DNA of 54,684 nucleotides, filler included, from Jimgerdemannia flammicorona (lineage: Eukaryota), in the NCBI GenBank assembly GCA_003990765.1. It is 2 parts of 2 records of this genome, joined end to end, with 100 filler letters (N's around TTAATTAATTAA, not from the genome) between each part and the next. Parts side by side here need not be neighbours in the genome. Positions count along the whole stretch, not along the records: positions 27,400 to 54,684 come from RBNJ01000643.1; 1 more part is not named here. One strand, 5' to 3'. A model generated the notes under the pieces. The model ran no database searches and was not told where the DNA came from. It saw only the letters and a program-made list of their open reading frames with translations. Both the position numbers and the translations under genes were made by a program. Positions 17,671 through 54,638 of the stretch are shown here, one piece after another; position 1 is the first letter of the stretch, and every line of letters begins with the position of its first letter.

Positions 17671-18770
17671 TATTTAATGTCATGGATCCGTGACGGACGT
17701 TAACAAGTAGTGTACGATGGAATTTGAGGCACAAAGATAGGTGAGGAAATTAGTTCGTTGCACAGATTACAATGAACCTATGTGTACGTCATAATCACGT
17801 TACTGCTGATAAATAACGAGTTAAAGAATATATACAATGTCCGGCTGATTTTTCGGGTCCGGATTCGGACGAATCAGGCATTGGACCCGAAACGCCATAT
17901 CATAACGTCATGATTCTATCTGGATACTATGTATATACAATGACATTGCAATGAGCCTGAGATACATGATCTCACAGAAAACTGATAAAATTTATTGGTA
18001 ATATATATATAATGTTATGTCTTCCTCAATTTTAAATAATTACCGCGCATTTTAATTCCTATTTTTCAGGTCACTCAGCAGAATTGAACAACCATATTCC
18101 CTATCCATCCAGCCACCTGAAAATGCTTTTGCGTATGTGCCCTGCGCAGGCGGGGTGCCGCAGAAACTCTCGCGGCTAATATCTTTTTGGTTGCATAAAC
18201 AAGGAACAATGAAATCCTCCCACGCAGTTATCTTCCAGGAGAGGTTAGCCGAAGAAGCTTCCGCCCAATCTGGGAAAGTGCTTCGAAGTCACGGTTGGGA
18301 CCAGGACGCCCCCGATGCAAACGGAATCGTTTCCCTTTGTAACGCAGCGAGGAATAACCCAATTTTATTAATCTTTAGTTCATTCATTCAAACTGCAGGA
18401 TCTCTGGTATTCTAACTCAATAATGTTAAAGTCTGATCATCTGCTGCCGAGTAATGAGGGAAAACATCTAGCCAAAATATCAAGCCATGAAATTTCGCAA
18501 ACAAAAAAAAAAAAAAGGAAAGCCGAAAAAACGATGTTAATGCTTTTCGTGTTGAGGCTGCGGTTCCACTCTCGCAGTTTGTAAGGTAACTTAGTGCGCG
18601 AGGCTTCAAAAGAAAATCGGTGACGTCCGATTTCATGTGCACGATAGTTGATCTGTGTCTGACGTCAACATATCTTTGATTGTTATTGTTGTGGCTTTCG
18701 AACGACTCTCGAAATCCAAAGTCTCCAATATATCCAATATAACAACTACAAAAAGAAACTAGCTTAGCAG

Positions 18771-21700
18771 ATGCACGGGTCCAAGCCCTCCTCTGGCAGC
18801 GTTTTCGTCCGAGAAAGGACGTGCGAAATATGCTTGTTTAAGTTTTACAATGACACGACGTTTGAAAACCACTTTGCAGGATGGGTGCATCAAAAACGAT
18901 TGGCCATCCAAAACGGCAGAGCCAGCGTCGCAAACGACCCGCCTGCGACTGTTGGTCTTGCGCGTGAGGAGGTGGAATCAGCCGAGCAGCAAGCTCAGAC
19001 AAGTGAGCTCATTCTCACCGAATAAACCACGTCTGACAAAGTTTTCGTTTCTGTCCCAACCACTCCTGCCCCGTTGTGACCAGCCGTCCGTCTACCCCCC
19101 CTTGTCTTCCCCCGGTCATCACAGTTCGTCTCCCCCCCTTACGCTCTCTCCCTCCTGGCCAAGCGAGCACTCTCGACTCGACCGCGACCGCTATTGTCGT
19201 TCCGGCGGTAGTTCCAGCCGTCAACCTTGTTCCACCCACGAACCTTGTTCCACCCGTGACTGTTTCCTCCCCTGTGACTATTCCCTCCGTGACTATTCCC
19301 TCTTCGGTCACAACCCCGTCCTTTGAACCTCCTGGTCCAGCTGCCAGTCCCAAGAGGCCAAAGACCACAAAGAGGTACCACCGACCTATTTCTAATATTC
19401 GGCTATATATATCCATGCACAGAGTAAATTTATATCTTTACTCTTCAATCACAGCGAAACTGTTCGCTGTGATAACTGCCAGATGGAATTCTCGAATGTT
19501 GGAGCTCTTGAAGTCCACTGCAAAAGCAAGAAGCATCGAAGGAAGGGCAAAAATGTCCTGAGGGGATGCACCAAAATCGTGTATGTCTCTGCTTGACGCT
19601 ATTGCTATACACACTCATTTCGGCTCCAAAGCATACTTGTTTTACCTTTACGAAACCCACACGTTAACACATTCATTTGCATCACAGATATTTCCCTTGC
19701 GAGCTGTGTTCGCGGATCTTTATAAATGAATCTGCGCTCGAAAAGCACTTGCTGGAAAAGCCACGAACTTGCACGGTGTGCTGGGACGTGTTTGATAGTG
19801 AATCGGAGCTCCAGAATCACCTTGTGAAGGAGCATAGGAGCGAGCAAGATAAATCTGACATCAAAACTACGAAGGAGACGGTGAAAGAGCCAGGAAGTAT
19901 GGCAAGCAATCGTATCGCAGCATGGGAAGAATGGGGAAAATGGGGAGCACAGAAACCGGATAACTCTGTCATCAAAACTACGAAGGAGACATTGAAAAGG
20001 CCAGGGAAAAAGGCAAGCAACCGTATCGCAGCAGGGGAAGCACGGGAAGCATGGCAATCGAAGCCTATTATTGCAGAACAGCAAGCGAAAATTTCCGAAA
20101 CGAATTCCGAAAAATGGCGAACCGAAGTCGTGTAAGTCCCTGTTTGACGCTATTGCTATACGCATTCCAGTCGGCTCCAAATCATGCTTTTTTTAACATC
20201 CAAAATCACTTAAACGTGCATAGGAGAAAGCAAGCTAAATCTACCATCAAAACTATGAACGAGACGGCGAAAGGGCCGGTAGTCAATAGTGTCCGCTGTG
20301 GTGACTGCCAGAGGGAATTCGCGGATGTCGAAGCGCTTAAACAGCACCGCCAAATGCGAAAAATATTGTACCGCTACCCTCCCAAAGTCGTGTAAGTCCC
20401 TACTTGACGCTATTGCTCCCATTCGGCTCCAAATGATACTTGATTTACCTTCACGAAACCCACATATTAACGCGTTCATTTGCATTGCAGGTTGTTCCCA
20501 TGCGAGCTGTGCTCGCAAATCTTTATGAATGACTCTGCGTTCAAAAAGCACTTGCTGGAAAAACCACAGACCTGCATGTGTTGGGTCGTCTTTGAGAATG
20601 AATCGGCGCTCCAGAGTCATCTTGTAAAGGGGCATAGGAACGAGCAAGATAAATTTGCCATCGATACTATGAACGACACGGCGAAAGGGCTGGAGAGCCA
20701 TAGTATCCACTGTGGTGACGGCCAGAATGTCGGAGCGCCCGAACGGCACCACGAAAGTAAGGAGCATCAGCCGAAGGTGGTGTCAAAGTATGTACCTATT
20801 GTTGAAATTGCCTTCACCCTTCGTCGCGCCTACCCTGCCTAACCGCCACCACTCTCAAACAGCGCCGGAACAAACTCCAAAAAATGGCTAACCGAACTCG
20901 GGTAAGTCTCTGCTTGACATTGCGCACTCCATTCGGCTCCAAACCATATATATTTTACCTTCACGAAACCCACATGTTAACGCATTCATTTGCATCGCAG
21001 GTTTTTCCCTTGCGAGCTGTGCTCGCGGATCTTTATGAATGACTCGGCACTCAAAAATCACTTGCTGGAAAAGCCACAGACCTGTACCGTGTGCTGGGTC
21101 GTTTTTGATAGTGAATCAACACTCCAGAATCACCTTGTAAAGGGACATAGGAGCGAGCAAGATAAATCTGCGAAGGGACCGGAGGTCCATAGTGTCTACT
21201 GTGATGATTGTCAGAGGGAATTCCTAAATGTCGGAGTGCTTGAACAGCACCGCAAAGGCAAGAAGCATCAAAAGAAGTTGACATCCAAGTATGTACCTGT
21301 TGTGAAAAGTTTTTTCACCCTTCGTTGCGCTCGCTTGCCTAACCACACTTTCCAACAGCGCCAAAATTTCCGAAACGAATTCCGAAAAACGGCGGATTGA
21401 AGTCGTGTAAGTCCCTATTTGACGCTATTGTTATACGCACTCAATTCGGCTCCAAATCGTACTTGTTATTACCTTCACAAATCCACACGTTAAAATTTTC
21501 ATTTGCATCGTAGGGGTTTCCCATGGGAGCCGTGCTCGCAGATCTTTATGAATTACTATGCGCTCAAAAAGCACATGCTGGAAAAGCCACGGACTTGTCC
21601 GCTGTGCCAGGTCGTCTCTGATAATGAATCGGCGCTCCAAAATCACCTGAATGAGCATCAGAGCAAGCAAGCTAAATCTGTCATCAAAATGATGAAAGAG

Positions 21701-22948
21701 ATAGTGATAGAGTTGAAGGGGCATGGGAGCGAGCAAGATAAATCTGCCATCAAAACTACGAAGGAGACGGTGAAAGGGCCAGGGAAGCACGGAAAGCATG
21801 GAAAGCATGGAAAGCACGGAAAGCACGGAAAGCATAGAAAACATGGGAAGCATGGAAAGCATGGAAAGCATAGGAAACACGGGAAGCATTGGAAAGCATG
21901 GGAAGCACGGAAAGCATGGAAAGCATGGGAAGCATGGAAAGCATGGAAAGAATGGCAAGCTTGGAAAGCACGGAAAGCATGGAAAGCATGGGAAGCACGG
22001 CATGCGAAAATTTCCAAAACGAACTCCGAAAAATGGCGAACCGAAGTCGTGTAAGTCCCTGTTTGACGCTATTGCTATACGCACTCCAGTCGGATCCAAA
22101 TAATGCTTGTTTTATCTTCCATAATCGCCTAAACGTACATAGGAGAAAGAAAGGTAAATCTGCTATCAAAACTACGAACAAAACGGCGAAAGGGCTGGAG
22201 GGCCATGGTGTCCGCTGTGGTGACTGCCAGAGGAAATTCCTGAATGTCGGAGCGCTTGAACAGCACCGCAAAAGCAAGCATCAAAAGAAGTTGGCATCCA
22301 AGTATGTACCTTTTGTGGAAGTCCTTTCTCCCTTCGTCGCGCCTACTTGTCTAACCACTATCCAACAGCGCCAAAATTTCCGAAACGAACTCCGAAAAAT
22401 GGCGAACCGAAGTCGTGTAAGTCCCTGTTTGACGCTATTGCTATACGCACTCCAGTCGGCTCCAAATCATGCTTGTTTTACCTTCCATAATGGCCTAAAC
22501 GTGCATAGGATAAAGCAAGATAAATTTGCTATCAAAACTACGAACGAAACGGCGAAAGGGCTGGAGGGCCATAGTGTCCGCTGTGGTGACTGCCAGAAGA
22601 AATTCCTGAATGTCGGAGCGCTTGAACAGCACCGCAAAAGCAAGCATCAATAGAAGTTGGCATCCAAGTATGTACCTTTTGTGGAAAGTTCTTTCTCCCT
22701 TCGTCGTGCCTGCTTGGCCAATCACTACCAGAATGCCGATTACAAAGGCACTCCACCCAATAACGACTATGCCGATCAAGAAGGTCCGCGAGTGGATTGG
22801 ATATGTGCGCCAAGGTAATCGGTGGATCGGTCCCACCAAGATCGCGGTACAAGATGACGATATGGCGGCCACGAACGTTGCGAAGAAGTCGAAGTCGGTT
22901 TTGCAAAATTTGGAACCAGACGAACGGATATTGGAGGGGGAGGAGTAG
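18771..22948 (+). CDS. Multi zinc-finger protein, paralog B; 14 predicted exons: 18771-19002, 19125-19374, 19455-19580, 19688-20131, 20224-20391, 20491-20787, 20863-20901, 21001-21288, 21359-21406, 21514-22050, 22143-22301, 22369-22416, 22509-22667, 22732-22948; premature TAG at 22651 in exon 13; lacks the Ig-like region
   Basis: Repeated CELC..H, CTVC..H..H and CGDC/CDDC..H..H fingers. Donors are GTAAGT/GTATGT/GTGAGC/GTACCA and acceptors YAG. The terminal peptide MPIKKVREWIGYVRQ..RWIGPTKI is shared with paralog A. May be a truncated or pseudogenising allele. Confidence 0.7.
21784..22002 (+). repeat. Coding 9-bp tandem repeat (GCAYGGRAA) within exon 10 of paralog B
   Basis: Roughly two dozen units. 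Reads KHG, AWK/AWE or MES/STE depending on frame. One-base insertion near 21889. Confidence 0.9.
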
Positions 22949-37100: not shown

Positions 37101-37849
37101 TGTGAGGCATGCCTTTATTAGAGTTCAACATTAGTGATGGCATCGAATGCCAAAGGGGTCCAGGCCAGGATCTGTGGACTAGTGGTTGGCAAGGAGTTGG
37201 AATTGGTGAGGAGTGGGACTGGCATGGGGTTTGGACCTGGAGTGCTGCAGTGAAAAATTGGATGCCGCCAAAGTACTGGGTAGTCTGGTGGCATGTCCTG
37301 AGGAGGAATGTGATGCTTAACTTCTGCTCAGGACACCTTGTTGTAGGGGGCTGCTTTGACTGCAAGAAGTGCCATAATGTCGGGCAGGAAGGGGGATTTG
37401 TACAGATGCCGGAACATTGGCTAGGGGAGTGTGAGGTGTTGGGAGACTTTTGGCAGGCCGTTGGGAACCGCTTGGGGGTAAGGCGTAGGGGTGATGATGT
37501 ACGGGAGAGGTGGGAGGACCTGAGGGATCGATTGATAGGAGGGGTTGGGGAGGAGTGGATTACTCTAGACTGGGTGTTGGCTATTTGAGTTGGGCTGGCC
37601 AGCCACTGGCTTTTTGTATTTGAGGAGGAGAAGTGGCCGAGCTTGGGGAGCCAGTTAGCAAGGTGGCAGTTCCTTATGGAGGATACATTGACAGGCTGGT
37701 GGCTTGGTTGGGGGCTGCAGGGAGGTCAGAGGCACTACTTGGTGGTGAAAATCTGTGGTCAGAGTGGTGGAAGAGTTGGAGTTATTGGTGAGAGGGTGGT
37801 CTTTATATGTGATGAGGTGGGGTGGGGCCACCCGATGGGGATCGGATAG
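34194..37849 (+). pseudogene. LINE ORF2: apurinic endonuclease - reverse transcriptase - C-terminal zinc finger
   Basis: APE motifs SLNVNG, LLQD, GGDFN, RIDWI and SDH. RT motifs APGEDG, NWRPI, LDQEKAYD, QGDPLSP, FADD and YLG. C-terminal C..C...H...C. One frameshift (~35480) and several point stops. Confidence 0.92.
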
Positions 37850-37950
37850 TGGGTGGTGATATTGTATACTTATTCATAGACTGGCAATAAAGACGGAGTC
37901 CAAGGGACTATAAAAAAAAAAAAAAAAAAAAAAAATAGTAATAAAAGATA

Positions 37951-40330
37951 CTGAATATCTGCTTGAGAGTTCTATTATTATACTCAGTTTGGTCATCTGT
38001 CTATGAGTAATAGACTATTGAGAACTTCAGCTTTATCTCTAGAAAATAAAGAATGCTTTCCAAAGTTACTAACAAATTTGGTATCTTAGTTAGAGATAAT
38101 AGTACTTAGTATACATATATATGTATTATATAGTCTGAATATCTAATTTAGAAATATTTTAGCAATCTTCAGAGCTATTGCAGTAGTCTTGATAGGTACA
38201 AAGTGAGTTTACTTACTAAGATAGTCAATGAATACTATATATTATAACATACTAGCTTAATAAAGACAAATTACAAAATTGGAACTACTATGTAGATTAA
38301 CTTAAGCCTTTAGTTACTTTGTCAAAAAGCAATAAAATATTTAATGATTTCTCTCAAAAATAGTTACAAGTTCTCTATTTTATATAATATAGATAATTTT
38401 TAGTGATTTTTTAATTAGATAGTAATTTTCTAGATAGTGCTAAATTAGTAGACTTCTCAAGTTCTTCAGGTTTAGTCTATTAAGTATACTAAGTATATCA
38501 GATAATTGGTTTTTACTTTTGAACTTTTCAGATAGAGATTTATTCACTTAAATTTCTAGAGTATTTTATATAGCTATCTGATTACTATTTGACTAATTAT
38601 AGAATATATAGTAATGCTATTTTAGGAAGAGAGTATCAGATATATCTGCTGAGTATATGGATACAAGTGTATTCTTAAGATACAGATCAATATATATATC
38701 TGATTTGATATATTTTACTATATTATATATATTATTTACTTATTATAGTATAATAGCATTCTATCCTATCTAGGTTTTGAGTAGCTAGATAATAAAGTCT
38801 ATTGTAATTTAATTATAATTATGGATAGAGATTGATAGAGATTACAGAAGTCTAGCTAATATCTTATTATTACTCTTAAATCTTTAATATACATTATAAA
38901 TATTTTGATATCCTTAATCATTTTTAACTAGTAGAATTCTCTAAAGATAAAATTATAGATTTTCTTAAATCCAAAGTATTCTACTATAAATATATTATAA
39001 AGTTTCTATATGATCTTAAGATAAAGTATATTATCTCTAAATAAATACTATCACTCTTTTATAGTCTTAGTATATGAGTCTATCTTAGTAGATAAATCTC
39101 TTAGTTATTCTTTTCATTAGTTCAGATATCTCAGTTTCTAGTTTCTAGTAGTATTAGAGAAAAACCAGTAGTGGACTATATTACTGATAGCAATTCTTAA
39201 TTAGTTGAGTAAAGTTATCAATTATCTTAACTATGAAGATAATTTCATCTTCTATATATCTTGAGAAATTATTAACCACTTAATTGATTTTATCTAAGAT
39301 ATACTTGATTTCTATATTAAAGAGAATAATGATTTTTATCTATAATACTTATTTATATATTAGCATTGGTTGAGTATAGATATATTTAAGTATATTAATA
39401 TATATAGTCTATAAATAGCTATCTTAGTAGGAAGTAACACTATTTCTAAAGAGTAGTTATTATAGCCAGAAGTTTCTTTTTATAAGTAATATATTGAGTT
39501 TTCACTAGCTTGAGCTTCTGAGATAGATAGATTACTAAGCAGTCTTCTTGACTAAGTATAGTACTAATAGTAATATATAATATATCTGTGGTCGGAATAA
39601 AGACCTAGTGGGGTCTGATGTAATCAGTACTGGAGTCTTAGTAAGTAGTCTTTTGAGGTAATCTCTAGCTTTTATATAAGCAGAGATCTATTCTTTTTTT
39701 TATATCAGAATAATAAGTAAGATAATAATTATAGAGTATCTCATAATCTCTAAGGAGTATTAAAGAAACTTGAGAGTAGTAGAGATAGAAATATCCTGTA
39801 GGGCTAATATCTTCAGAGATCTATATTAATACTATCTGCTGAGATAATATATCTCAGATACTCAATATAGTCTTAATAGAACTTATATTTACTTACCTTA
39901 ATATAGAGCTAATATTCATATGTATAGTAAAATCAGTATACTTTAGAGATAAGTATAATATAGTTCAACTGTCTCACTATAGATCAATATATCATCAATA
40001 TATACTAAGACATATATATTAAGTAGTAGTTTAAAGATATTATTTATGAGATTCTGAAAGATTACTAGTATATTAATCAGATTAAAAGATATAACTCAGA
40101 ACTAATAATATTTAAACTATATCCTAAAGGCTGTCTTTTCTATATTTTATCAATGAGAATCTTATAATATCTATTTTATAGATTCAATAGAGAGTATGCC
40201 TTAGTCTCAAAAATCTGATAAAGTAGCTCATCAATTCTTAGGAGAGTATATTAGTTCTTGATAGTAATCTTATTGAGAGCTCAATAGTTAATATATATTA
40301 TAGTGAGTATCCTTCTTCTTGACAAATAGG
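37951..40330 (-). mobile_element. Highly decayed Ty3/gypsy pol (RT-RNaseH-IN), continuation of 31140-32031
   Basis: Minus strand 'LFVKKKD...ALNKITIKN*YTLLRIDELL...EKTAFR...FQNLINNIF...VLVYIDDILIYS'. Confidence 0.75.
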
Positions 40331-43300
40331 ACAAATATATCAAAGACCCACTATCAGTATGAGGCCATCAAGATCTACACCCCTAAGATCTGATCAATAC
40401 TATCCCAAATATCACCAACTTCTCCCACCAGTCTCCTCCAGACTACCACACTTATAGAGTTCTCTGGTCTTCTTCCCTCAGAGCCCCAATACTCCTCTAA
40501 GCTCTACCAATAATCTTCTACTCTAAGCCAAGATATGCTCTGATGTCTGAACTACCTTTCCATGGAGTTCAGTATACCAATTATAATCCTGATAACTATC
40601 TATCTCTATTCAGTCTATCTGATAGCTCAATATCACATTTCTTCTCAAAAACTGCCACCAAACTACCTAATACCTAGAGGGTACTACCCAATATAAGGCA
40701 GCTACCTAATTCCAGACCTGATCCCACTCCCATATATTATTAATTCCAACTGCTTACCAACCAACTGGCCATCTCTCAAGGGGTCCTGTTCTAGTCTATT
40801 CTATGATCTTAATTAAGTAATATTCTTTTAATATTCTACCACCTACTGAAAGTAACTCCAGCCTCCACCACTGCTACCTGAAGTCTATATCCTCCCCAAT
40901 ATCAGACTCTACCAACTGTCTCAATCTGAAGTAGTCTTCTTATATTCTTCCACTCCTCACTCCTAGAGCAGAACCTAATCTTCTAATTGTCCATTGTTAG
41001 CTTGCCTCAACCTTCTTCTCTCAGCTCTACAAGACAGCACTCCTACCAGCTCTGAAGAGCCCTCAATTACTACTGAAAGTCAACTAACTCCAAGCCCCTA
41101 TGAGTAACCTACAGTACCTATGACTTCCATCCAATCTGTGGCCACCTCTCTCACTAAAGCCATTCTTCAATAGTCTTCTTCAACTGCCACACCACCCACC
41201 CAGGAAAGTCCAAATAATATCTCAAATACCATAACTTTGATAACTAGTATATATTCAAAACCACTACTCTCTCTATTAGAGAGAAGTTATGCTCAGATCA
41301 GTTTATTAATTACCTTCTAATTTCTGTACCATTCCACACCACCACTCTCTTGGCAGAACTGTTTTATATATCAAGAACCAAATACTCAAATATCTGTCAG
41401 TCTCTCTAGTAGGCACAACTTACTCAAACCCACTCTCAGCCCCTAAACCAGCACCAAGCTTCAAAGTCTCACACTTTCTCCAATTCAACTTTGCCCTAGC
41501 CAATCTATCATACTGTCCAATTTCCTCCTATAAAATATCCACATTCTCAACATCTAACTCTACAATTATATTATCTGCAAAAGCCCTGAACTTCTAAACC
41601 ACCTCTCCCATATGCAGTCTAGTCAGTCATCCCTTCAACTTGACCAATATAGGCTCCAAAGAGAGAACATAAAGGAGGGGGGAGAGGGGATCTCCCTGTG
41701 GAACTCCTCTATCCAAAGTGAACTCTAGACCATATCAGCCATTTATTAGAACTATAGCTCTATAGTTATATACTAATCTCATAAGCCTTCCAATCTCTTC
41801 CATATCAAACCCAGCCTTATGCAATATAGCCTTTAGATAACACTATCATACCCTGTCATATGCCTTCTTTTGATCTAAGAAGACTATCTGCCTATCAATC
41901 CAATAACTCCTACAATCCTCTAAGATATTCTGTACTCAAGCAGTACTGTTCTTAATCTGCTGCTCCATTACAAAACCCCTCTGCTCCTCACTCATCAGCC
42001 TGCCAATCCACTGCTACATCCTCTCAGCTAAGACCTTTGAGACCAACTTTCTATCAACATTCAATAGCATAATTGGCCTCTAGTTCTGCCACACCCTCTT
42101 ATCATCTTTCTTCTTATATAATAGAGAAATCAATCCTAAGTCACCATTACCAATCTACTGGCCTCCTCTAATATAAAGTTGATTATTATAACAAGCTAAG
42201 TACTAAACTCAGCCTAGAACTCCTTCCAAAACTCCCAAGATAGCTCATTCTCTCTAGGTGATGAACTACCCAGTATCTCCTGCAAAACCCCTAACACCTC
42301 CTCCAAGGATACTCTGCTCATCACAAAAGCCCCCATCTCTGACAATGCTACTACTAACTAGTTCTGCACCAATGGAGCATTCTCAACATCCAGTATACCA
42401 TCATTCCCACCCTCACCATCATTACTCTAAAAGACCTACTATTGCCCAAAGATCTCCTCAAGCATATCAGCAATATCAGAGACCTTGACATCATCCTCTC
42501 ACAAGACTGAAACCCAGCTATACTATACTCTTCTGGTCTTCAGAACACTCAATAGATACTTGGTTAGCTACTATCTTTCCAGTCACTAGGCTCTCAGATG
42601 TATCAGAAGGCCATCTACTACTCTGTTCTCTACCTCTCTCATATCTAACTATAGATCAACCACCTCCTTAGCTAGCTGATGATATTCTTCCCCTATTAGT
42701 ACCCCTTCTTCTAATAACTACAACTGCCACCTCAGGTCTCTCTCAGTCCTCTTCTCTTTATTCTTTCACTCCTTTCTAGTCATTTTTCCAACATCACACC
42801 AGTAAGCATCTACTAAGTACTTAAATCTGCCCCACTATTTAGCAACTGATAGACCACTATCCACCCACCTTATAACTTCCTGCCTGGCCAAAACTACAAA
42901 TTGTTCTCTCTTCACTAGATATCTGAGCAAGGCCACATTAAGACACCAATGCCCCCCTCCACTACTAACTGTCTGGAACCTTCTATATATCTCTACTCCC
43001 CAATGATCTAATTATAAGCACCACTATACCTCCATAATGTCTAGTATATTACCCCAATATTCTGATACTAGTACTCAATCAATCTTTGTCCTCCAGCCTA
43101 TTACCCACTGGATGCCACCTAGTGAAGGGCCCCGATCTATTCCCAGCTTATAGCTATATATCATCTATCAGTCTCATGCCTTTCTCTACCTGAAACCACT
43201 AGGATAGTCCCTGAGAAACTGCTGCTCCAGCCCCACCATCAGACTGGTCTAGAGCAGATTATACACTATATTAAAATCTCCCTCTAAAATATCCAACCCA

Positions 43301-45195
43301 ATACTCTCAAGCCAACTACTCCTTTATCCATTGTTTTCACTCTCTGCCAACTGCTGGTAAGTACACCAAGCCCACCAAAAGTCTATCTCCAGTCTTTCTC
43401 TTCAATCTTCCCCACACTAGTTAACTACTAAAAGTATCCACATCCATTAGCTCACTCTTACTGACACTAACTAGAATATCAACTTGCTTATTCCAACTGA
43501 TACTACCAATCTATTTCTTACTCTACTTCTTATAGTCCTGCACATTATAGATCTGAACATCCTGAAAAAATACTACATCATACTTCCTGACCTTTAGCTA
43601 CCAGAATAAGTACTGCCACTTGACTCTATTTTATTTACTATTGATATTAATTGATAAAATATATAAACTATTCATTATTAAGAATTGAGAGTTTATAGAT
43701 CAGCTATAACTACCACCATCTTCTCAGCTCTATCATTAATGATATCTCAATACTTCTTACAGACAGTCCTTCAGATACACTCTCTATTAATACTACCACA
43801 GAAGAAGTCCACCCACTTTAATGCTATCTTTCTGATATCCACTATTCTGACTTCATCCAACTCATACCCCTCATTCTCCAAAAGAGCCATCACTATAGCT
43901 ATCACCAACTTTAGCCCCTATATTGCCACATTAAGAAATCTCTCTCACATCTCTAGAGATTTCTGAAATATGTCCACTTCCTTGATGTCTTTCTCCACAA
44001 ACTCCTCAAAGATAGCCTGGAACCAACCATCTGCCATGATCATCAAGGGTTCTGGAGTGGCAGACCTAGGAGTCCTGCTCAACTCCAGAAGTAATTCTCT
44101 ATCTGCAGACACATCAGAGGCAATCTCTACTAAATCCTCCTCCTCAGAGACTTTATCTAGCTATACTACCTCACTAGCCTCAGGGTATTTTCAGTATATA
44201 TTTACAGCTCCAGTCATATTTATATCCTCCATCTGAGTCTCTGAAACCATCTTGATAATCTCCTCAAAATCTTCTCTTCTCACCTCCTTTCTATTAGCCC
44301 ACTTTCCCTTTACTAGTACATGTATAGAGGCTTCTATGCCTTTCAGCTATGAGAAGGATACCTTAGTTGCCTCCACCCCTTCCATCTAATTCCTATCAAT
44401 TGCAACTCTTGCAGCCTCCTCCTCTGTAGACTCTTGCAATATAGCCTTAAAATGCTCCCAATTCTCCTTATACTATCATCTCTTCTTTCTATTAACCTGA
44501 ATTCAGATCTAATTCTTAGTGAACTCCTCTCACTTTCTCTTCCACAAGACCTTTACTACTTCATACTCCTCTAGAGCAATCATCAACTTCTCCTCTTCCT
44601 GTTCAGAACCTTTTTTTCTCTAAATCTGATATTCCTACCATTTAATATAAATAACCTCAGGCCAGTCTTGCCCCAACTCTATCACTTTCTTTTTCTCCAA
44701 CTGCACCATTGCCTCATAGTTACCATTTCTCAACTTTATACTCTCTCAAAATATGAAGCTGAAATCTACCATCTCATCAAAACTCTCCAGAGCTTTGGCC
44801 ACTACTACCTTCATCTCCTGTCTACTCAGTATCAGCAATTCTTTAACTACCAGATACACTATACATGGGTCCCACTGCAGATATCTCACTATCCCAATCT
44901 TAATATTCTTGACCATCAGTCCTTTCTTCAGAGTCTTCACTATCATCTCCTCCTCAACAAAGTCAATCTCAACAGCCTCTACTGATAGAATAAATCTCAA
45001 TAACTCTGCCCTCACAATCTCCTCACCCACCAGTCACAAAACTTTCCTGACTGATTGCTCTAGCTTCAAGAAGTTGGCAGAGATAGCCCACATTGATACT
45101 GACTTGTGAAAGAAAGGATGCACTACTATTTCATTAGTTCTAGTAGTCAAAGTCATCCTATTCTTGCTCCCAGAAACCCCAGCCAATATCTTGCC
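40331..45195 (-). mobile_element. Second L1/Tx1-like LINE, diverged relative of 32049-37935; decayed, poly(A) end missing
   Basis: ORF2 start at ~43675. Minus-strand QGDPLSP (~41690), AFADN (~41575), LDQKKAYD and NW/*RPI. ORF1 remnant 44746-45030. Confidence 0.85.
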
Positions 45196-45199
45196 AGTA

Positions 45200-45407
45200 G
45201 TTTATTATTATCTATCTATCTTTATTGTCTATCTATCTTTATCATCTGATCTCTATTATCTGTCTACTATTTATTCTCCATTATCTATCTATCTTTATTA
45301 TCTATTTATCTCTATCATCTGTCTACTATCTATCCTCTATCATTCATCCACCTCTATCTATCTATATTATCTATCTATCTCTATTATCTATCTACTTTTA
45401 TTATTTG

Positions 45408-45473
<66 letters not shown>

Positions 45474-45594
45474 CTATTTTATAGGCTTGAGATCTCTTTA
45501 TTAACTAATCTATAATAAATATATAGTTCTTATACTATACCAGTAGCCCCACTTCAATCTATTTATTATCTGTCTATCTTTTTTTTCTTTCTAT
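45200..45594 (-). repeat. Degenerate (CTAT/ATAG)n tract, long poly(T), and a short minus-strand LINE 3' tail (~45408-45555)
   Basis: Minus strand reads ...tatttattatagattagttAATAAAgagatctcaagcctataaaatag(A)n, resembling the 3' end of the 32049 LINE (attcatagactggcAATAAAgacggagtccaagggactata(A)n). Confidence 0.65.
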
Positions 45595-47214
45595 TGTAAT
45601 AGTGATCTCAGAATGATGACATCAGCATAAGAGATAGTCTTTCCTTATAAGCTACCAGACTGAAGTACAAAAAGATCATATGGTATGACTCACCTAGGCT
45701 ACAAGATGAGCAAGGATGACTAACTGTAAGTTATTATGACCACAAGATAGATATCTCAAGAAATATAAAAGAAGGATCAAGAAATCACAGTAGCAGCAAT
45801 CCAAACAAAGCTTACAGAAATAGTTCTAAAGACTTATCACAAACAAATGCCTACTACTCACCAAACCTCAAGATTCAGGAACCACCAAGGCCCCTCAGTT
45901 CAGAAAAGGATGTTTCAAGACATCAGAATAGCCATGAGAACCTATACAAGAAGAACTCCTAGGTACCAGTGACCCTTATCATTATATCCTCTACTACCAT
46001 AAAATGGAAACAAGGATCACTATTGCTACTGAATATCTCTGGATATAGCAGGAGTATAAAATAGGAAACCTTCTCTGCTGGAAATTCCCTCAGACCAGTC
46101 ACTAAGAAATACAAGATGTTACTCCCATGAATGTATATAAAATAAGAATAGCCAAGAAGATTTATCAGGTCTTCAGGCATATACTATAGTCAATCTCCAA
46201 CTTAGAGTATACTAGGATCTCAGACTTCAAGGAACTGTCAGCCTATCTTACCAATGTACTGGAGGCCATAGTGGTTACAGAAGCCCAGTCTACTATTACT
46301 CTCAACAGTGATGAGATAGGAGAGTTCTGAAACTCTATTCTCAAGAACAATTCTGATCAATTTCTTCAAGAATTGATCTCAGCATTCCAAGGCCCCAGCA
46401 TCTGGGTTAGACCTCCCCAAGACCCCATATTTGTACTTTATTTTGTAGAAGAGAATGTTATATATTAGAGAGCCCCAGATCTCCTTGCTTTCCCTACTGC
46501 TGAATAAGATAATATCATCTACAATTATGTTATTGATGATGATATCATCTTACATAATATACACAAAGCACATGAAATATGCAACATATACAAAATAGAT
46601 AAAATGTTCACAGACCTCATCTCCTTCAAAGACATCCTATCTCTAACCTCTGGTCTTGATAATAGTGACAAAGATGAAGCCCCTATGGTCCTGAAATTTC
46701 TGCTCTAAGTTCTTAATAACACTGAATTCTATCAGTATTCTTTTTCTGTATAACTGTTATTCTTCTGACATTCTGATCTTGCATAACTCAGAAATTCTTC
46801 TGGTATCCTTTTCCTATACCACTAAAATTCTACTGATATCCTAAACTTATGTAACTATTTATACAGATACTTGAACTTATACTTACAACTATAGTTTTCT
46901 GTATCTCAGTATTTTATTTAGTTATTGGAATTTATATTTAGCTTTATAACTTAGCAACCATTGAATTATATTTTGTATAAATATCCCTCTTATTTCCTTT
47001 AAAATAAAGTTAGTTCTAGTTCACTTACTCGCAATTCCATGCAAGCAATCTAAGAGATAACAAGACAGTTTAAAGATAAGAAGTTTGAGGACTATAAGAT
47101 CTTGAGAAGGCACTCCAATAAGATCTTGCTTATAACAAACTTGAGGTTAGTCTAAGAGATACACCTTGGAGAGAATCTGATATATTTAAAGAACTCAGTA
47201 ACTACTATGTGACA
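45595..47214 (+). repeat. 5' LTR (1620 bp; TG...CA) with U3 ORF remnant 45847-46708, TATAAATA 46976-46983 and AATAAA 47003-47008
   Basis: Matches 53022-54638 and the reverse complement of 29280-30852. TATA and poly(A) signals are conserved in all three LTRs. Confidence 0.9.
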
Positions 47215-47217
47215 ACT

Positions 47218-47235
47218 TGGTATCCATTGGCTGGT
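47218..47235 (+). promoter_or_regulatory. Primer binding site (TGGTRYCCATTGGCTGG), 3 nt after the LTR; cognate tRNA not determined
   Basis: TGG start immediately downstream of LTR-terminal CA. Conserved in the minus copy. Confidence 0.7.
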
Positions 47236-47339
47236 GATTCAAGATGAATTCCTCACTTTCAAGCTAAAAAATGAACAACTATCATAATAACTACCCTAAC
47301 TACAAGAGTCACCCCTGCAAGAATTTAAGATAAGATAGA

Positions 47340-50300
47340 AATATATCTCCTCACATTCTATGGATATACTTCCAAAAAGTCAATCCTGATCTTCATTGAA
47401 GACTTTGAATAATTTACTACTATACAAGCCCTTGTCATAGATACACAATTGGCTCTTCTATCAGATAGCCTCAGAGGACCTACCAGAGATAAGTTCAATG
47501 TAGCCACCATTGCTAATACTGGTACAGCCAAACTTTCCAACATAAAGACCTTCCTCAGAACTATATACTATACTGAAGAGATTAAGCAAACTCTCAAGGA
47601 TCAACTCAACACTATCTGCCAGAGACTTAGTGAAGATCCCAACTCATTCTACACCCAAATCCTACCAGATTGTCTTGGCTGGCTATGATGATGCCCTTGA
47701 GGAATAAATAGCTGATTCAACTTTTCTAAAAGAAGTTCACTCTGAAATTGCTCTAGCAATCTGGTCTACCCCAGCTGCTCTGACCCTTGATCAGAAAGTG
47801 GTCTTTGTATAGAGATATTGGACTGCCAGACACCTCACTGAATACTTAATGGAGAAAATAACTAGTATTAAGATAGAGTCATCAAAGCCAACCAGTATCA
47901 TACCCACTATAGTTGTAAACAGACAACCATCCCCACCTACCCCCAAGGCAGCCAAAGCTAATCCAGTGGAGGAACTCACCAAGTAGTTTGCCAAGATGAC
48001 TGCACATCTTAGTGATATTGTTAGAGAAGTCTGAAGCACCAACAGAAGATCAGTATAGAGATTTGTAGCTGCTACAGAAGAATGCAATATCACATACTTC
48101 AGATATGGAGAAGAAGGCCACTATGCAAAGAGTTGCATGACCAAAACAAGATACAAAGCCCAATCAAGCAATACTACCAAAACTAGAGACAAACTAATAT
48201 AGTAGTCATCAAGGAGATTGATGATACTGATGATGAAAAATACTATGAAAAGTCTAAATTCTACTCTGTTACTGAAGGTACAAGAACTCAGTCCAAGCCC
48301 TATGACAAGAAGAGCAACAGCAAGCCAGTTGGAAGACCAAAAAAGACTCCAGCTATCATTATTCAAAGCAAGACCCAATCTGAGGAGATTGATCAAGACA
48401 TAGAGTTAGATGAAGCTGCTCACCAAATTATTGAAGACAATACTTCAGTCTCAGGAGAAAGTGAAAGTAAGAAAGAATAGAAGCTACACAAGATCAAGAT
48501 CCATTAGTATGATATCTACAAAGATCTCAAGGAATAGAAGGTCAATACTACTTTTGGACAACTAGTTAAAGTCCCTGCCTTCAGACAGTAGTTGAGAGTA
48601 GAACTTGCAATTACTATCAAAAATCAAGAGTATAAGATTGTAGAAGCTCACAATGTATAAGAAGAATTCAAAGACTCAGGTAAAGAATCTGAAGACTAGT
48701 ATAAGATATCAGCCTATACTCCATATTAGATTGAAGATTATATTGTTGATACCATTATTGATACTAGTGCTGAAAGATATCTCATAAGCAAGAAGACAAT
48801 TGACTGCCTAGACTGGGACATTGAAGAGTCTACCAAGATGATCTATATTACAGTAGATAGTATATAAGCTACCCCCCTAGGCAAGATCTGAGAAGTACCC
48901 ATTAAGATAGGAGAAACTACTATCACAGTAGATATGATTGTTACAAGCACCACCAACTATAACATCCTCATTAGCAACCAATGGCTTTATAAGGCCAAGG
49001 CTATTATTGACCTCAATGCTCAGAAGATGTAGATCAACTATAGAGGAAGAAAGGTATGAGTCTCTATCAATGTCCATAAAGGAGTACTACTAGAGTCAAG
49101 TCCTTCAGGACTACTGATACTTGAAAAAATTGGAATGATACAGAGAAGATTAGCATGGCCCCTGCACAAGAATGATACTATCTTCCTGAGTGGATAGCCC
49201 TATATGGGCAAGGAGTACTACTAGATATGGAGGAAGGAGATGAAGAAGACACAGAAGTCTTTATATACTTGGTATATAAGAATAAGAGCAAGATACCTAA
49301 GCTTACAGATGAGCAGTGGTATAATAAGATTATTGATGACTATGCCCCTCAAGGAAGATACCTCCATGGTATCAGGATGTACTACTCCAAACACCTAAAT
49401 AACTGCTGGTTCTGTATCAGTGAAGTCAGGAAAATCTGCCAACAAAAGTATGAGCAAGAAGCTGCTGAAGCAAAAAGAGAAGCTGAAGAAGATAACCAGC
49501 CCTCAGAGCTTCAAGCTAATAGTGAAGATGAGGAGGAACAAGAACCAGACATCATTCTCAAGGTTAAGAAGTTCCACCCTGAAGCCAAATCCCAGAATAT
49601 AAGACTGAAGGAGCTATAGGAATAGATCTTGCTAGCATTCAAAATGCTATCCTTGAACCACAGACCACCACTCTACTTGGTACTAGAATTGGAGTCAAGT
49701 TGCCAGAGAACTATGCTAGAATCATCAAGACCAGGAGCAGTCTGACCAAAAAAGAAATCTCAGTTAAAGGAGGAGTAATTGACCCTGATTATACTGATAA
49801 GATCTTTCTCATAGTCAGAAATCACAACCCTACCACCCCATTCAAAGTCAAGAAGTATGACATGCTGATCCATAAAGTCAAGAAGCCCAAGATCACTGAA
49901 GTCATTGAACTTATCAAGACCAAGAGAGGAGAACAAGGCTTTGAATCTACTGAAAAAGGAGCCTATGCTGCCACTAAGATTACTGAACTTGAGCACAAGA
50001 AAGATAAGGACCAGAACAAGCACACATATACCATTAGAGAAAACTTTCCTCTAGAAGAACAACTTCTCAAGATCCTATACTAGAATAAAGGAGTACTTGT
50101 TATAGACTTCAGAGATATCTATAATTAAGAACCCAAGTACTACCATGAAGTTGACACTAGTGATATCAAGCCTATCTACAAGAAAGTCAGACCTATACCA
50201 CCTGCCTACAGAGAATAGCTGCAAGCAGAACTTAAGAAAATAGAAGAAGCTGGAATCATCAAGCAAGCTATTAGTCCCTGGGCTTCACCCATTGGCCTTA

Positions 50301-51466
50301 TCTCAAAGAAAGAAAGTAAGCCTAGAGAGTTTGCTCCAAGACTCTGCATTGATTACAGGAAGCTCAATACAATTACCAAGAAGGATAGACAGCTCTTACC
50401 AAATATCTAAAAAATTCTTATTACCATTGAAAGTGAAGCCAAATACTATACCACCTTGGATCTGTTCTCAGGCTTTCATCAGATTGGTCTCACTTAAGAT
50501 ACTAGTGAGAAATCAGCCTTCATCATACCTGATGCCATCTATATCTATCTGTGAATACTATTTGGAATGTGCAATGCCCTAGTAAGTTTTCAGCAAATGA
50601 TAAATAGAGTCTTCAGCAATGAGATTGGAAAATAGCTCTTTGTCTATATTGATAATGTGATTATCTTTAGCAATACTACATGAGAATATGTCAACCACAT
50701 ATAGCTGGCTCTCAAGAAGCTCAAGAAGTATAGCCTCTATATCAAGCTCAAGAAGTGCAAGTTTGCAGCTCAGAAAATCACCTATCTAGGACACCTCATC
50801 AACTAGACTGGAATTCACATAGACTTTATAAAGATTGAGACTATTGCAGCCTACCCAAGATCCAGAACAACTACAGAAGTCTATGCCTTCCTTGGACTGG
50901 CTTCCTACTATAGAAGATTTATCAAAAAATACTCTAACATTATAGCACCTATCTATAAGCTACTGAAGAAGGAGACCAAATTTAAATAGACTAAGAAATA
51001 TCAAGAAATCTTCAATGAACTCAAGATCAGATTGACCCAAGCACCCATTCTCAGAAGACCAGATTGGAACCTAGAGTTCATCCTATAGGCAGATGTAAGT
51101 ACTATAGGACTTGGAGCAGTCCTAGCTCAGAAGAAAGATGAACATAAATATGTCATCTCCTATACAGGCTGAGGTATCTGCAGAGCAGAACAGAACTATA
51201 AATCATATAAGCTTGAATGCTTAGCAGTAGTTTGGGCAGGAGACAAGTTCTACTACTACCTAGCTAGGAAATACTTCACTATTCAAACAGACCATTCTGC
51301 TCTCACCTGGCTATTCTACACTCTGAACTCCAAAGAAATATATACCAGATAGATCTATAGGCTATAAGAGTATAACTGTACTGTCAAGCATCACTTAGAA
51401 AGAACCAATGCCAATACTGATGCACTCTCAAGAATACCCCAAAACACTCCCATCAAGACTATTTAA
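47340..51466 (+). pseudogene. pol: gag-pol polyprotein remnant (gag, protease, dUTPase, RT, RNase H)
   Basis: Protease IIDTSA (~48760). RT SPWASP, LCIDYRKLN, LDLFSGFHQI and VYIDN (~50645). RNaseH ADVSTIGLGAVL, LECLAVVWA, TDHSAL and DALSR, then TAA 51464-51466. Many CAR>TAR and TGG>TAG stops. Start approximate. Confidence 0.9.
49550..49960 (+). pseudogene. dut: dUTPase domain between protease and RT
   Basis: Motif 1 EGAIGIDL, motif 2 KTRSSL, motif 3 GGVIDPDYT, motif 5 RGEQGFEST. One 1-nt frameshift near 49590. Confidence 0.88.
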
Positions 51467-51467
51467 C

Positions 51468-52665
51468 ATGAATAAGGAGCTATACTATAGATTAATCAGC
51501 TACTTCAGGCAGTAGAAGATGCCCAACTATCTCGAATTCTGGACTATCACTATCATCAACTGGACTTAGAAACAATTTGAACTAGACAACACTATACTCA
51601 GAAAAGGAGAAAAGCTTGTAATACTTAAATACAAGAAGTATCAAGTAATAAAGGAAGCATATAAATAAGAATACCTAGGAGAAACTAATATATATGATAA
51701 AGCAAGAAGAACTATGTGGCGACCTAAGATGAAAGAAGACCTGCAAAAGGTATAATAAGTACCAAAAACAAAAATAAGATCAGCAAGACCAGACATTAAG
51801 ATCATCAAGAATTGAGCCTATCTCCTTCTACCACATTACAATAGATATTATTGGACCACTGCTAGTAATACTATCAGGAAACTGCTATATTATATATAGT
51901 TATAATAGACCTCTTTATCAAATAAATAGAAGCAGGAGTATTACAAGAAGCCAATGCTCTCTTTATAGCTAACTTCCTATACTGAGAAATTATCTATTGC
52001 TACAAGACACTAAGGCAAATCACCACAGACTACAGCATAGAATTTATCAATAGATTCTATAAGATAATGTATCAGAAATACAAGATTCAGTATATCAAGA
52101 CCACTGCATATCATCCTCAAGGAAATGGACAGATAGAAAGAACCAATAAGACCCTCAAAAACATCTTAGTGAAGATCTCAGATATGTATGATAATTGGGA
52201 TAACTACCTCCCAACTGCTCTCTCTATCCTACAAGATATACAGTTACAGAGTACACACTTTACTCTAAGAGAACTACTCTTTGGAGAAGAAGATTCCAAT
52301 GAAACCTCAGCTACAAATCTAGACCTAATATGGAGATGGATTGACTCAGAAATCTGGAGACTACACCAAATCAAGAAGAAGGCTGAAGATTATATCATCA
52401 AGTCACAAGTGCTGATAAAGAAGAATATAGAAAAGAATCACAAGACCCTAGAACCCATCCAAATTGGAGAAAATATTCTACTGTATTGAAATATAATAGA
52501 AGCCTCATGGTTATGAAAATTGGAGTCCAAATGGAAAAGACCCTTCTATGTGCAAGATATCAAGAGAACTACCTTCTGGCTTAGAAAACTCTCAGAGACT
52601 ATACTACCTATATAGTATATAGAAATAGACTCAAGAAGTACCATGAACCTATATAAGAGAAGTAA
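51468..52665 (+). pseudogene. Integrase, apparently a separate ORF with its own ATG
   Basis: Begins MNKELYYRLISYF one base after the RNaseH stop. Contains IDIIGPL, TTAYHPQGNGQIERTNKTL and the GPY/F-like KWKRPFYV. Confidence 0.8.
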
Positions 52666-52666
52666 A

Positions 52667-53026
52667 ATGTAATGATTGCCTGTGAGGTTCTAGTTTATAA
52701 ATTATAACAGTATGTTCTATAATCAGCAGACAATCTGTCTGGATCATTCTCTAAAGAATATGGTACTAGCAACTACTCATTCATATGACTTTCAAAGTCA
52801 GAGGAGTTCAAACTGTCAACTGATTGGTCAAGATCAGAATCAGGCCCTTGTTCTATATAAAGAGAACAACCCTTCACCATTAGGCCAAAATATATAGGGA
52901 AGATACCAGCTCATAAATACCACTTTTCAACCCCCTGCCAGAGATTATGAGATTAGCAAATTTTTCAGACTGGACCAATGAATAAGAATATTCAAGAGAA
53001 GATTCTTATTCAGGAGGAAGATATAA
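52667..53026 (+). pseudogene. Candidate extra ORF3 between integrase and 3' LTR
   Basis: ATG at 52667 lies one base after the IN-frame TAA (52663-52665) and is in frame with ORF 52712-52897. The interrupting stops could all be single C>T or G>A changes. Confidence 0.4.
53012..53021 (+). promoter_or_regulatory. Polypurine tract
   Basis: AGGAGGAAGA immediately precedes the 3' LTR. Confidence 0.75.
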
Positions 53027-54638
53027 TAGTGATCTCAGAATAATGACATCAGCACAGGAGACAGCCTTTCCTTACAAGCCATCAGATTGGAGTATAGGAA
53101 GATTATATAGTATGACTCAAGATGAGCAAGAATGACTAACTGTGAGTCATCATGACTACAAGATAGATATCTCAAGGAATACAAAAGAAGAATAAAAAAA
53201 CTGCAGTAGCAGCAATCTAAACAAAGATAACAGAAATAATTCTAAAGACTTATTATAAACAAATGCCTGCTGCTTATCAAATCTCAAGGTCCAGGAACCA
53301 CCAAGGCCCTCAGTTCAGGAAAGGATATTCCAAGACATCAGAAAAGCTATGAGGATCTATACAAGAAGGACTCCTAGCCTTAACCTGGATACTAGTGACC
53401 CTTATTATTATATCCTCTACTGTTATAAAATGGAAACAAGGATCACTATTACTATTGAATACCTCTGGATATGGCAGGAGTATGAAATATGAAACCTCCT
53501 CTGTCAGGAATTCTCTCAGACCAGTTACTAAGAAATACAAGATACTATCCCCATAGATGTATATGAAATAAAGATAGCTAAGAAGATTTATCAGATCTTC
53601 AGACATACACTATAGTCAATCTCTAACTTAGAGTACACTAGGATCTCAGACTTTAAGAAACTTTAGTCTACTGTACCAATGTACTGGAGGCCATAGTGGC
53701 TACAGAAGCCCAGTCTACTATCACCCTCAATAGTGATGAGATAGGAGAGTTCTAGAACTCTATCCTTGAGGACAATCCTGATCAATTCCTATAAGAATTG
53801 ATCTCAGCATTCCAAGGCCCCAGTATCTAAATTAGACCTCCCTAAGATCCTATATTTGTCTCTTATTTTGTAGAAAAGAATGTCATAGATTAGAGAGCCT
53901 CAGACCTTCTCACTTTTTCTGCCACTGAATGAGATGATATTATCTATGATATGTCATCAACAACAATGTCATCCTATACAATATGTATGAAGTATACAAA
54001 ACATACGATATATATAAAATGGATAAAATATTCACAGACCTCATCTCCTTTGAAGACATCCTATCTCTGACCTCTGGTCTTGATGATAGTGATGAAGACA
54101 AAGCCCCCATAGTTCTGAACTTTCTGCTTTAAGTTCTTGGTAACACTGAATTCTACCAGTATCTTTTTTCTATATAACTATTATTCTTCTAGCATTCTGA
54201 TCTTGCATAACTCAGAAATTCTTCTAGTATTCTTTTTCTATACTACTGAAATTCTACTGACATTATGAACTTGTGTAACTATTTGTACAGATACTTGAAC
54301 TTATACTTACAACTGTAGTTTTCTGTATCTCAGTATTTTATTTAGTTTTTGGAATTTATATTTAGCTTTATAACTTAGTAACCATTGAATTATATTTTGT
54401 ATAAATATCTCTCTTATTTTCTTTGAAATAAAGTCAGTTCTAGTTCACTTACTCTCAATTTCATGCAAGCAATCTAAGAGATAACAAGACAGTTTAAAGA
54501 TAAGAAGTTTGAGAACTATAAGACCTTAAGAAGATACTCCAATAAGAACTTGCTTATAACAAACTTGAGGTTAGTCTAAGAGATATACCTTAGAGAGAAT
54601 CTGACATATTTGAAGAACTCAGCAACCACTATATGATA
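53022..54638 (+). repeat. 3' LTR (1617 bp; termini mutated to TA...TA) with U3 ORF remnant 53263-54132
   Basis: Collinear with the 5' LTR. Differences are mostly transitions. Confidence 0.9.

Follow-up and report, generated by a model that had tools for sequence, protein, structure and literature searches.

A stand-alone integrase ORF at the ORF1 stop codon in a Ty3/gypsy-like retrotransposon clade, probably translated by termination-reinitiation

Described systems and the element in the window

To our knowledge, the integrase (IN) of every textbook long terminal repeat (LTR) retrotransposon and retrovirus is the C-terminal part of Pol and is released by the protease (PR). Recoding in LTR elements occurs at the Gag/Pol border. 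The element considered here lies at 45.6-54.2 kb of a 54,684-nucleotide (nt) stretch of DNA from Jimgerdemannia flammicorona (assembly GCA_003990765.1), the whole of which is called the window. This LTR retrotransposon of the Ty3/gypsy type is present as a dead copy, with C/G to T/A hypermutation in a pattern like that of repeat-induced point mutation (RIP). In the clade to which this copy belongs, the integrase is almost certainly a real and conserved stand-alone cistron, placed directly at the stop codon of a long upstream open reading frame (ORF1). Judged from sequence context, reinitiation coupled to the termination of ORF1 is probably the mechanism by which it is translated. The architecture, its conservation, and the mutational origin of two TAA codons previously taken for functional stops are established here by comparison with relatives.

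Among fungal Ty3/gypsy elements, a dUTPase has been described in Postia, Phanerochaete, and Tuber (Tmt1), and in PosPlaTy3-5 it is located between PR and reverse transcriptase (RT). Fungal Ty3/gypsy elements are also described with one or two ORFs, which are either Gag-Pol or gag plus pol (both statements from PMC2864245, in part). The clade resembles Ty3/gypsy elements (Metaviridae) in having LTRs, a CCHC Gag, the order PR-RT-RNase H-IN, an integrase with H2C2 and DDE motifs, and a dUTPase between PR and RT. The window element itself has the long terminal repeats, the domain order, a Ty3-type RT/RNase H, and the integrase type of the group. The Pfam domains RVT_1, RT_RNaseH, and RT_RNaseH_2, followed downstream by Integrase_H2C2 and rve, are matched in the window and also in the related metagenome loci L011, L014, L002, and L001. 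In contrast to the usual Ty3/gypsy arrangement, with the integrase inside the Pol ORF, the integrase of the window element lies outside it and starts at a separate AUG that overlaps the ORF1 stop, and Gag and PR-RT-RNase H are contained in one ORF. The clade is also unlike chromoviruses, as no Pfam match to the Chromo domain was obtained in the intact integrases of L001 (415 amino acids, aa) and L011 (429 aa).

Termination-reinitiation is known from calicivirus VP1/VP2 and influenza B virus M1/BM2 (both with a TURBS, a ribosome-binding site placed upstream of termination), pneumoviruses, Cryphonectria hypovirus 1 (CHV1, with UAAUG), the victorivirus Helminthosporium victoriae virus 190S (HvV190S), and the SART1 long interspersed nuclear element (LINE) (PMC10275272, PMC5972666, both in part). 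The restart site of HvV190S is described with an upstream structure (PMC10275272, in part). In SART1, a UAAUG couples ORF1 to the RT-bearing ORF2, and a downstream structure is required (PMC10275272, PMC5972666, in part). Like the viral systems, the clade has stop and start codons that overlap or stand a few nt apart (UAAUG, AUGA), are out of frame with each other, and follow a long upstream ORF. A structured element just upstream, as proposed for HvV190S, is present in one subclade only. Unlike the viral systems, the clade consists of LTR retrotransposons, the upstream ORF has 1250-1800 codons, the subclade of the window has no TURBS-like motif or structure, and the argument is made from sequence. 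The likeness to SART1 is that of a retrotransposon with a stop/start overlap for a second protein. SART1 is a LINE with RT in its ORF2, whereas in the clade an LTR element has its integrase as the putatively coupled cistron.

Gag/Pol recoding takes the form of +1 frameshifting in Ty1/Ty3, -1 frameshifting in retroviruses, and stop suppression in Tj1 (PMC5911963, in part). Reinitiation in the clade would likewise be a translational device giving less of the downstream enzyme than of the upstream protein. It differs from Gag/Pol recoding in that the break lies between RNase H and integrase, an AUG is conserved at the stop, both frame offsets occur, and a slippery site is lacking in most junctions. 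In the titles and abstract openings covered, no separate or reinitiated integrase ORF was found for LTR retrotransposons. In these and in two reviews of reinitiation (PMC10275272, PMC5972666, in part), stop-restart in retroelements is mentioned for non-LTR elements only, namely SART1 and LINE-1.

The RNase H/integrase junction in the window and its relatives

In the first-pass annotation of the window, two TAA-N-ATG junctions with the same one-base spacing were read, the first between RNase H and integrase and the second between integrase and a further ORF. The letters are indeed present at both places (TAA 51464-66, C 51467, and ATG 51468-70; TAA 52663-65, A 52666, and ATG 52667-69). The accompanying caveat that TAA can arise from CAA was well placed, since both TAA codons are CAA in L001, an unmutated relative with 83.4% nucleotide identity to the window. 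The first TAA is not the family's RNase H stop, but one of 16 in-frame stops within the 622 codons of the PR-dUTPase-RT-RNase H frame at 49601-51466. After codon 51464, this frame reads CAT GAA TAA and thereby reaches the family ORF1 stop at 51473-75. The true arrangement is therefore not a one-base gap but an 8-nt overlap of the ORF1 stop with the integrase ATG, ATGAATAA, which has the same letters in L001, L002, and the window. The counterpart in L014 is ATGAATAG.

A canonical Ty3/gypsy element with its integrase inside Pol, in which the frame between RNase H and IN was broken by a C>T change and an indel private to this copy, would agree with the heavy decay of this copy, which carries the 16 stops mentioned above, 10 stops and three indels in the integrase, and a TAA at 51464 that truly is a C>T product. 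This explanation is nevertheless very improbable. The window and L001 are collinear across the junction with no indel in 51350-51743, and therefore the two-frame relation of RNase H and integrase is not specific to this copy. Moreover, the same two-frame junction is found in L001, L002, and L014, and the 88 matches to longer proteins include no fused close relative, the best fused identity being 34%. Less mutated copies with RNase H and integrase in one frame were looked for in the relatives and were not found. A tblastn comparison of 150 distant Pol proteins with the linker gave no signal at 51465-51535 in any frame, so that the frame change could be placed with the close relatives only.

Even less probable is that both TAA-N-ATG strings, which do exist in the sequence, are functional restart sites with a third cistron downstream of the integrase. 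The second TAA does not end the integrase, whose ORF extends to 52705-07, and P0264, a related protein described below, continues for 13 codons through the region of this supposed junction. The further ORF does not exist, as ATG 52667 is directly followed by TAA 52670-72. TAANATG occurs 30 times in the window compared with 47 +/- 7 times in shuffled sequences, and four of the occurrences are on the plus strand in 51419-52720. The string is no commoner than chance, and the repeated one-base spacing is therefore attributed to chance.

The integrase remnant was also previously read in a single frame. Its homology, followed by tblastn, passes through frames 0, 1, 2, and 1, a walk that results from three indels relative to L001, namely the loss of 11 nt after 51743, the gain of 4 nt near 51891, and the loss of 1 nt near 52610. 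Ten stops of the window integrase stand at sense codons of L001 (CAA>TAA 4, CGA>TGA 3, CGG>TAG 1, TGG>TAG 1, and TGG>TAA 1), and two of the CAA>TAA changes are those at 52654 and 52663. The Pfam matches Integrase_H2C2 (E 1e-3) and rve_3 (E 9e-3) both fail the Pfam cut-off in this mutated copy. Among the 234 substitutions from L001 to the window, 113 are C>T, 78 G>A, 19 T>C, and 6 A>G, so that C>T and G>A together make up 191. At the C/T differences of the LTR pair, A follows in 44 of 77 cases, which is a RIP-like dinucleotide context. An excess of C>T/G>A in repeats together with a dinucleotide preference, as in RIP, is thus present. The window copy is an inactive fossil and serves as a pointer to the clade.

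Among sequencing runs, one DNA run and no RNA run were listed with the sequence. This run, the soil metagenome X1 (share 0.06), provided 1085 short contig pieces on window positions 51000-52900, which are 80-99% alike and cover all 30 bins. The pieces have G/C where the window has A/T at 92 places and the reverse at 38, an excess that agrees with hypermutation of the window copy. No indel or joint relative to the window was seen among the pieces listed, and those displayed, at 114-212 nt, are too short to bridge the junction informatively. The family or its close kin is abundant in this sample.

Junctions were surveyed on the DNA of relatives with an alignment of 11 stand-alone integrases as the query. 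Metagenome contigs yielded 518 pattern matches, of which 392 were confirmed and the best 80 kept as loci L001-L080. A junction was recognised where the alignment reaches integrase residue 1 (in L017 by eye), independently of gene calls. Twenty junctions were recognised in 19 of the 80 loci, two of them on the single contig of L011. In 19 of the 20, an ATG stands where predicted, and the RNase H frame stops at a spacing from it between an 11-nt overlap and a 2-nt gap. The conserved +1 offset that had been envisaged across related families was not observed, as the integrase frame is offset by +1 in 4 junctions and by -1 in 15 (Table 1). Junction form and frame have switched repeatedly, and the adjacency of stop and start has been kept. 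Around the junction, L005 and L026 do not differ. L003, L012, L015, and L017 have decayed and show either a further stop upstream or a frameshift later on. The distant loci L049, L051, and L073 have no stop in the integrase frame for 970-984 codons upstream and are ordinary fused Pol elements. The earlier proposal of an integrase separate from the Pol ORF and placed for stop-restart is thus upheld by L001 and 18 further junctions, with different frames and an ATG at the stop.

At the protein level, a search with the integrase core that spanned lengths of 141-450 aa gave 16 matches, all of which are short stand-alone proteins, and 11 of these were aligned. Ten of the 11 (370-447 aa, the closest 410-447 aa) start at a Met homologous to ATG 51468, with the pattern M-[ND]-x-x-L-[YH]-x-G-L. 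P0264, which has 433 aa, is 77% identical to the window integrase and 99% identical to L001, is called from an upstream ATG, and has the homologous Met as residue 19. Among longer proteins (759-2165 aa, 88 matches), fused forms reach at most 34% identity and 197 bits; one longer match has 40% identity, yet covers 44% of the query. L011 has an intact 429-aa integrase with H2C2 and rve domains, linked by TAATG to its 1791-aa ORF1. Counted from the conserved ATG, 11 of 17 loci have integrase ORFs of 409 aa or more (range 409-543 aa). The ORF is shorter in L014 (371 aa), extends past the contig end in L026, and is disrupted in L002, L003, L024, and L030. The integrase ORF is under purifying selection, with dN/dS of 0.085-0.20 in the six pairs with estimable dS; dS is saturated in two further pairs, L001/L014 and L005/L006. 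Integrase identity between the split subclades is about 40-50%. As a weak lead to the hosts, clusters of proteins of about 400 aa are among the language-model neighbours of the L011 integrase, and the few labelled members of these clusters are mostly from Mucoromycota.

The upstream ORF completes this architecture. Gag and Pol are united in a single ORF in the intact relatives, with lengths of 1791 aa in L011, 1484 aa in L014, and 1258 aa in L002. The ORF1 of L011 contains a CCHC knuckle, an aspartic protease, dUTPase, RT, and RNase H, and the dUTPase has the same position in L011, L014, and L002 as in the window. Across the clade, ORF1 stops approximately 10-35 codons past the RNase H motif 'ADALSR'. 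In the window, the frame at 49601-51466 matches dUTPase (E 5.8e-16), RVT_1 (E 9.6e-24), and RT_RNaseH (E 2.8e-25) in Pfam. The ORF1 remnant has 31 stops at sense codons of L002, although the two share only 65% nucleotide identity and the ancestral codons inferred from this comparison are unreliable. The RT-RNase H frame was also queried by a library-wide HMMER search and a word-indexed search. Distant matches with 30-39% identity are ordinary fused Pol proteins. P0174 and P0176 are the two proteins that cover the whole 615-aa query including the dUTPase, with 41-42% identity. Both have Pfam gag, PR, dUTPase, RT, and RNase H domains and lack an integrase domain, and they terminate 9-10 residues past the end of the alignment, just beyond 'ADALSR', where the window frame ends as well. 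The closest Gag-Pol proteins without an integrase domain and the closest integrases as stand-alone proteins together bear out the polycistronic LTR element proposed in the first-pass annotation.

Eight other Gag-Pol relatives with about 40-43% identity (P0197, P0200, P0202, P0208, P0212, P0239, P0248, and P0250) extend 200-400 aa past RNase H. Their tails are acidic and rich in Cys (CxxC-type) and have no integrase Pfam domain.

How the integrase may be translated

In the clade, two cistrons, ORF1 and then the integrase ORF, replace a single Pol. The conserved AUG of the integrase overlaps or abuts the ORF1 stop, and in the family of the window this overlap is AUGAAUAA at 51468-75 with IN in the +1 frame. 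In the proposed mechanism, the ribosome would terminate after ORF1, a fraction of the 40S subunits would remain on the RNA, and these retained subunits would restart at the AUG a few nucleotides off. The outcome would be a free integrase in sub-stoichiometric amounts that the protease would not have to cut out of Pol. A stop and start kept together while their form and frame change are the signature of termination-coupled reinitiation after long ORFs. The complete reading, held slightly less firmly than the mechanism itself, is on balance the one we adopt. A deep, probably fungal, Ty3/gypsy-like clade would make its integrase by termination-reinitiation after an ORF1 of 1250-1800 codons and not within Pol. 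The clade would provide the first example of a stop-restart cistron among LTR retroelements, and the integrase:RT ratio would be set by the ribosome and not by proteolysis. The restart signals would be specific to the subclade, with an upstream hairpin in one and the unstructured AUGAAUAA in that of the window.

A coupled integrase cistron would change how integrase stoichiometry and incorporation into the particle must work in the clade. Stop-restart in eukaryotes would then be known from LTR retroelements and after very long upstream ORFs as well. Moreover, annotation of transposable elements that expects one Pol ORF will label such elements as broken or 'integrase-less'. The natural variants of the clade (ATGA, TAATG, TGATG, and ATGAATAR) would be useful for dissecting the restart rules of fungi.

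Several observations weigh against reinitiation or against the evidence brought forward for it. One junction, in L067, is uninterpretable. The adjacency of stop and start might be historical and partly a residue of the first splitting of a fused ORF. A tree of 57 integrases places the 20 split forms in one clade against 37 fused forms (SH-like approximate likelihood ratio test, SH-aLRT, 99; one state change), but the split sequences were collected by similarity, so that their monophyly is partly expected, and the fused ones are the nearest longer relatives. Protein starts at Met are partly a gene-calling artefact, a point that is answered by the junction survey on DNA. TGGGA, the TURBS-type motif, is absent from the 90 nt upstream in 19 of 19 sequences. 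In the ATGAATAR subclade, upstream structure is absent (z +0.8 in L001, +2.1 in L002, and +1.3 in L014), and folding upstream or downstream is no better than in shuffled sequences. The integrase frame is open for 18-147 nt upstream of the ATG, and the ORF layout is hence compatible with a frameshift. Finally, in-frame X XXY YYZ heptamers are present in six loci, as AAAGGGA/CCCTTTC in L011, L012, L015, and L016 and as other heptamers in L024 and L030.

The last two observations would suit a fusion of RNase H and IN by programmed frameshifting near the end of ORF1, with a -1 shift in most subclades, a +1 shift in that of the window, and an incidental ATG. Frameshifting is the usual recoding device of retroelements. 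This explanation is improbable, as the heptamer is absent in 6 of 12 junctions of the -1 type (L005, L006, L019, L009, L018, and L022) and in all three scanned junctions of the +1 type. The heptamers of L011, L012, L015, and L016 fall within a hairpin and not 5' of one, and both signs of the offset occur inside one clade. In L018, the two frames overlap openly for merely 18 nt ahead of the ATG. In addition, the ATG stands at the predicted place in all the junctions that can be interpreted, and the initiator column holds M in 20 of 20 split integrases (by construction of the ORFs) versus 1 of 27 fused relatives with a residue there. A slippery site followed by a structure with a constant direction of shift, as in programmed frameshifting, was not found.

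On the other hand, the stand-alone integrase ORF could be real and be reached through a separate mRNA, spliced or made from an internal promoter, or by an internal ribosome entry site (IRES), with the overlap as a product of compaction or a trace of the Pol split. Retroviral env is made from a spliced RNA, the architecture does not distinguish how the AUG is reached, and the lack of upstream structure in the window's subclade would fit. We regard this explanation as unlikely, though less so than frameshifting. Across integrases with 40-50% identity, 19 of 20 junctions hold the stop and start within the limits of the 11-nt overlap and the 2-nt gap, and frame and form shift. A free-standing mRNA would impose no adjacency of stop and start, and therefore the adjacency counts against a separate mRNA.

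A conserved hairpin just upstream of the junction in one subclade also argues against a separate mRNA and for reinitiation. It is shared by L009, L011, L012, L015, and L016, which form one sister subclade, and is also found in L018. Its z score is -3.0 in L011, with none of 200 shuffles as good, and -2.1 in L018. In L009, the stem is kept with different letters through compensatory changes, and in the group 4 of 9 pairs show such changes. The consensus fold over nine junctions, at -2.9 kcal/mol, is weak, since L018, L022, and L024 fail to align to the hairpin that the remaining junctions share. The hairpin also encodes a conserved peptide, ERL(P/G)KGxPF, and the in-frame AAAGGGA and CCCTTTC heptamers are within it.

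Layout of the window copy and neighbouring features

The two LTRs of the window copy have 84.8% identity and differ by 175 transitions versus 10 transversions. The inner boundary of the 5' LTR is uncertain because internal sequence recurs past the 3' LTR. All features are collected in Table 1.

Table 1. Features of the window copy, junction forms in related loci, and the hairpin upstream of some junctions
Feature	Position or loci	Strand	Remarks
5' LTR	45597..46825	+	direct repeats D2, D4-D8; approximate
ORF1 remnant, Gag-PR-dUTPase-RT-RNase H	47542..51475	+	aligned to L002 ORF1; start approximate; family stop TAA 51473-75
dUTPase domain between protease and RT	49601..49951	+	Pfam PF00692, residues 1-117 of P0001; E 5.8e-16
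RNase H domain	50990..51373	+	Pfam PF17917/PF17919, residues 464-591 of P0001
TAA formerly read as RNase H stop	51464..51466	+	CAA (Gln) in L001; C>T product
Stop/start overlap ATGAATAA	51468..51475	+	integrase ATG 51468-70 and ORF1 stop TAA 51473-75; IN in +1 frame
Integrase ORF remnant, H2C2 zinc finger and DDE core	51468..52707	+	ends TAA 52705-07; 77% identity to P0264
Second supposed junction, TAA-A-ATG-TAA	52663..52672	+	mutated CAA within integrase; no ORF
Purine-rich run, candidate polypurine tract	~53013-53022	+	just 5' of 3' LTR
3' LTR	53024..54249	+	direct repeats; LTRs of ~1.23 kb
Start of another internal region, tandem element with common LTR	54250..54636	+	92.8% identity to 46826-47212
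Junction ATGAATAA	L001, L002		IN offset +1
Junction ATGAATAG	L014		IN offset +1
Junction ATGGAGCGTGA	L003		IN offset +1
Junction ATGA	L005, L026, L006, L019, L024, L030		IN offset -1
Junction TAATG	L009, L011 (twice), L012, L016		IN offset -1
Junction TGATG	L015, L017, L018		IN offset -1
Junction TGAnnATG	L022		IN offset -1
Hairpin	L009:1778-1842, L011:117-181, L011:7892-7956, L012:396-460, L015:236-300, L016:2738-2802, L018:1311-1375		ends ~9 nt before TAATG/TGATG

A tandem arrangement is seen in the window, as internal sequence begins anew beyond the 3' LTR at 54250-54636. In the contig of L011, the order IN, LTR-sized spacer, ORF1, IN likewise indicates tandem copies or a circular form. A second and far less mutated fragment of the same family, from the gag region, is located at 27426-29579 on the minus strand and has 86% identity to 46917-49065. 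A CCHC knuckle is encoded in its open frame of 319 codons at 27930-28889. The fragment ends at an assembly gap and adjoins the N runs at 27300-27343 and 27356-27399. This gag fragment and the tandem start are the other copies of the family inside the window, and neither spans the RNase H/IN junction. A blastn comparison with a plasmid collection gave no match.

Outside the element, the block at 32000-38000 contains a LINE-like element with a weak Exo_endo_phos match at 34164-35111 and RVT_1 at 35459-36820. This block has a GC content of 51-55% and a very strong positive GC skew (+0.31 to +0.48), and it is followed by two AT-rich kilobases with a GC content of 23-25%. An equally strong negative skew (-0.35 to -0.51) is present at 40000-45500, and a low-complexity stretch rich in T is found at 45380-45480. 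Both strands at 15077-22653 contain repeated fragments of ORFs with C2H2/JAZ-type zinc fingers (Pfam zf-C2H2_jaz, E 6e-7), which resemble a locally duplicated gene family. An ankyrin-repeat ORF is located at 6155-7207 on the minus strand.

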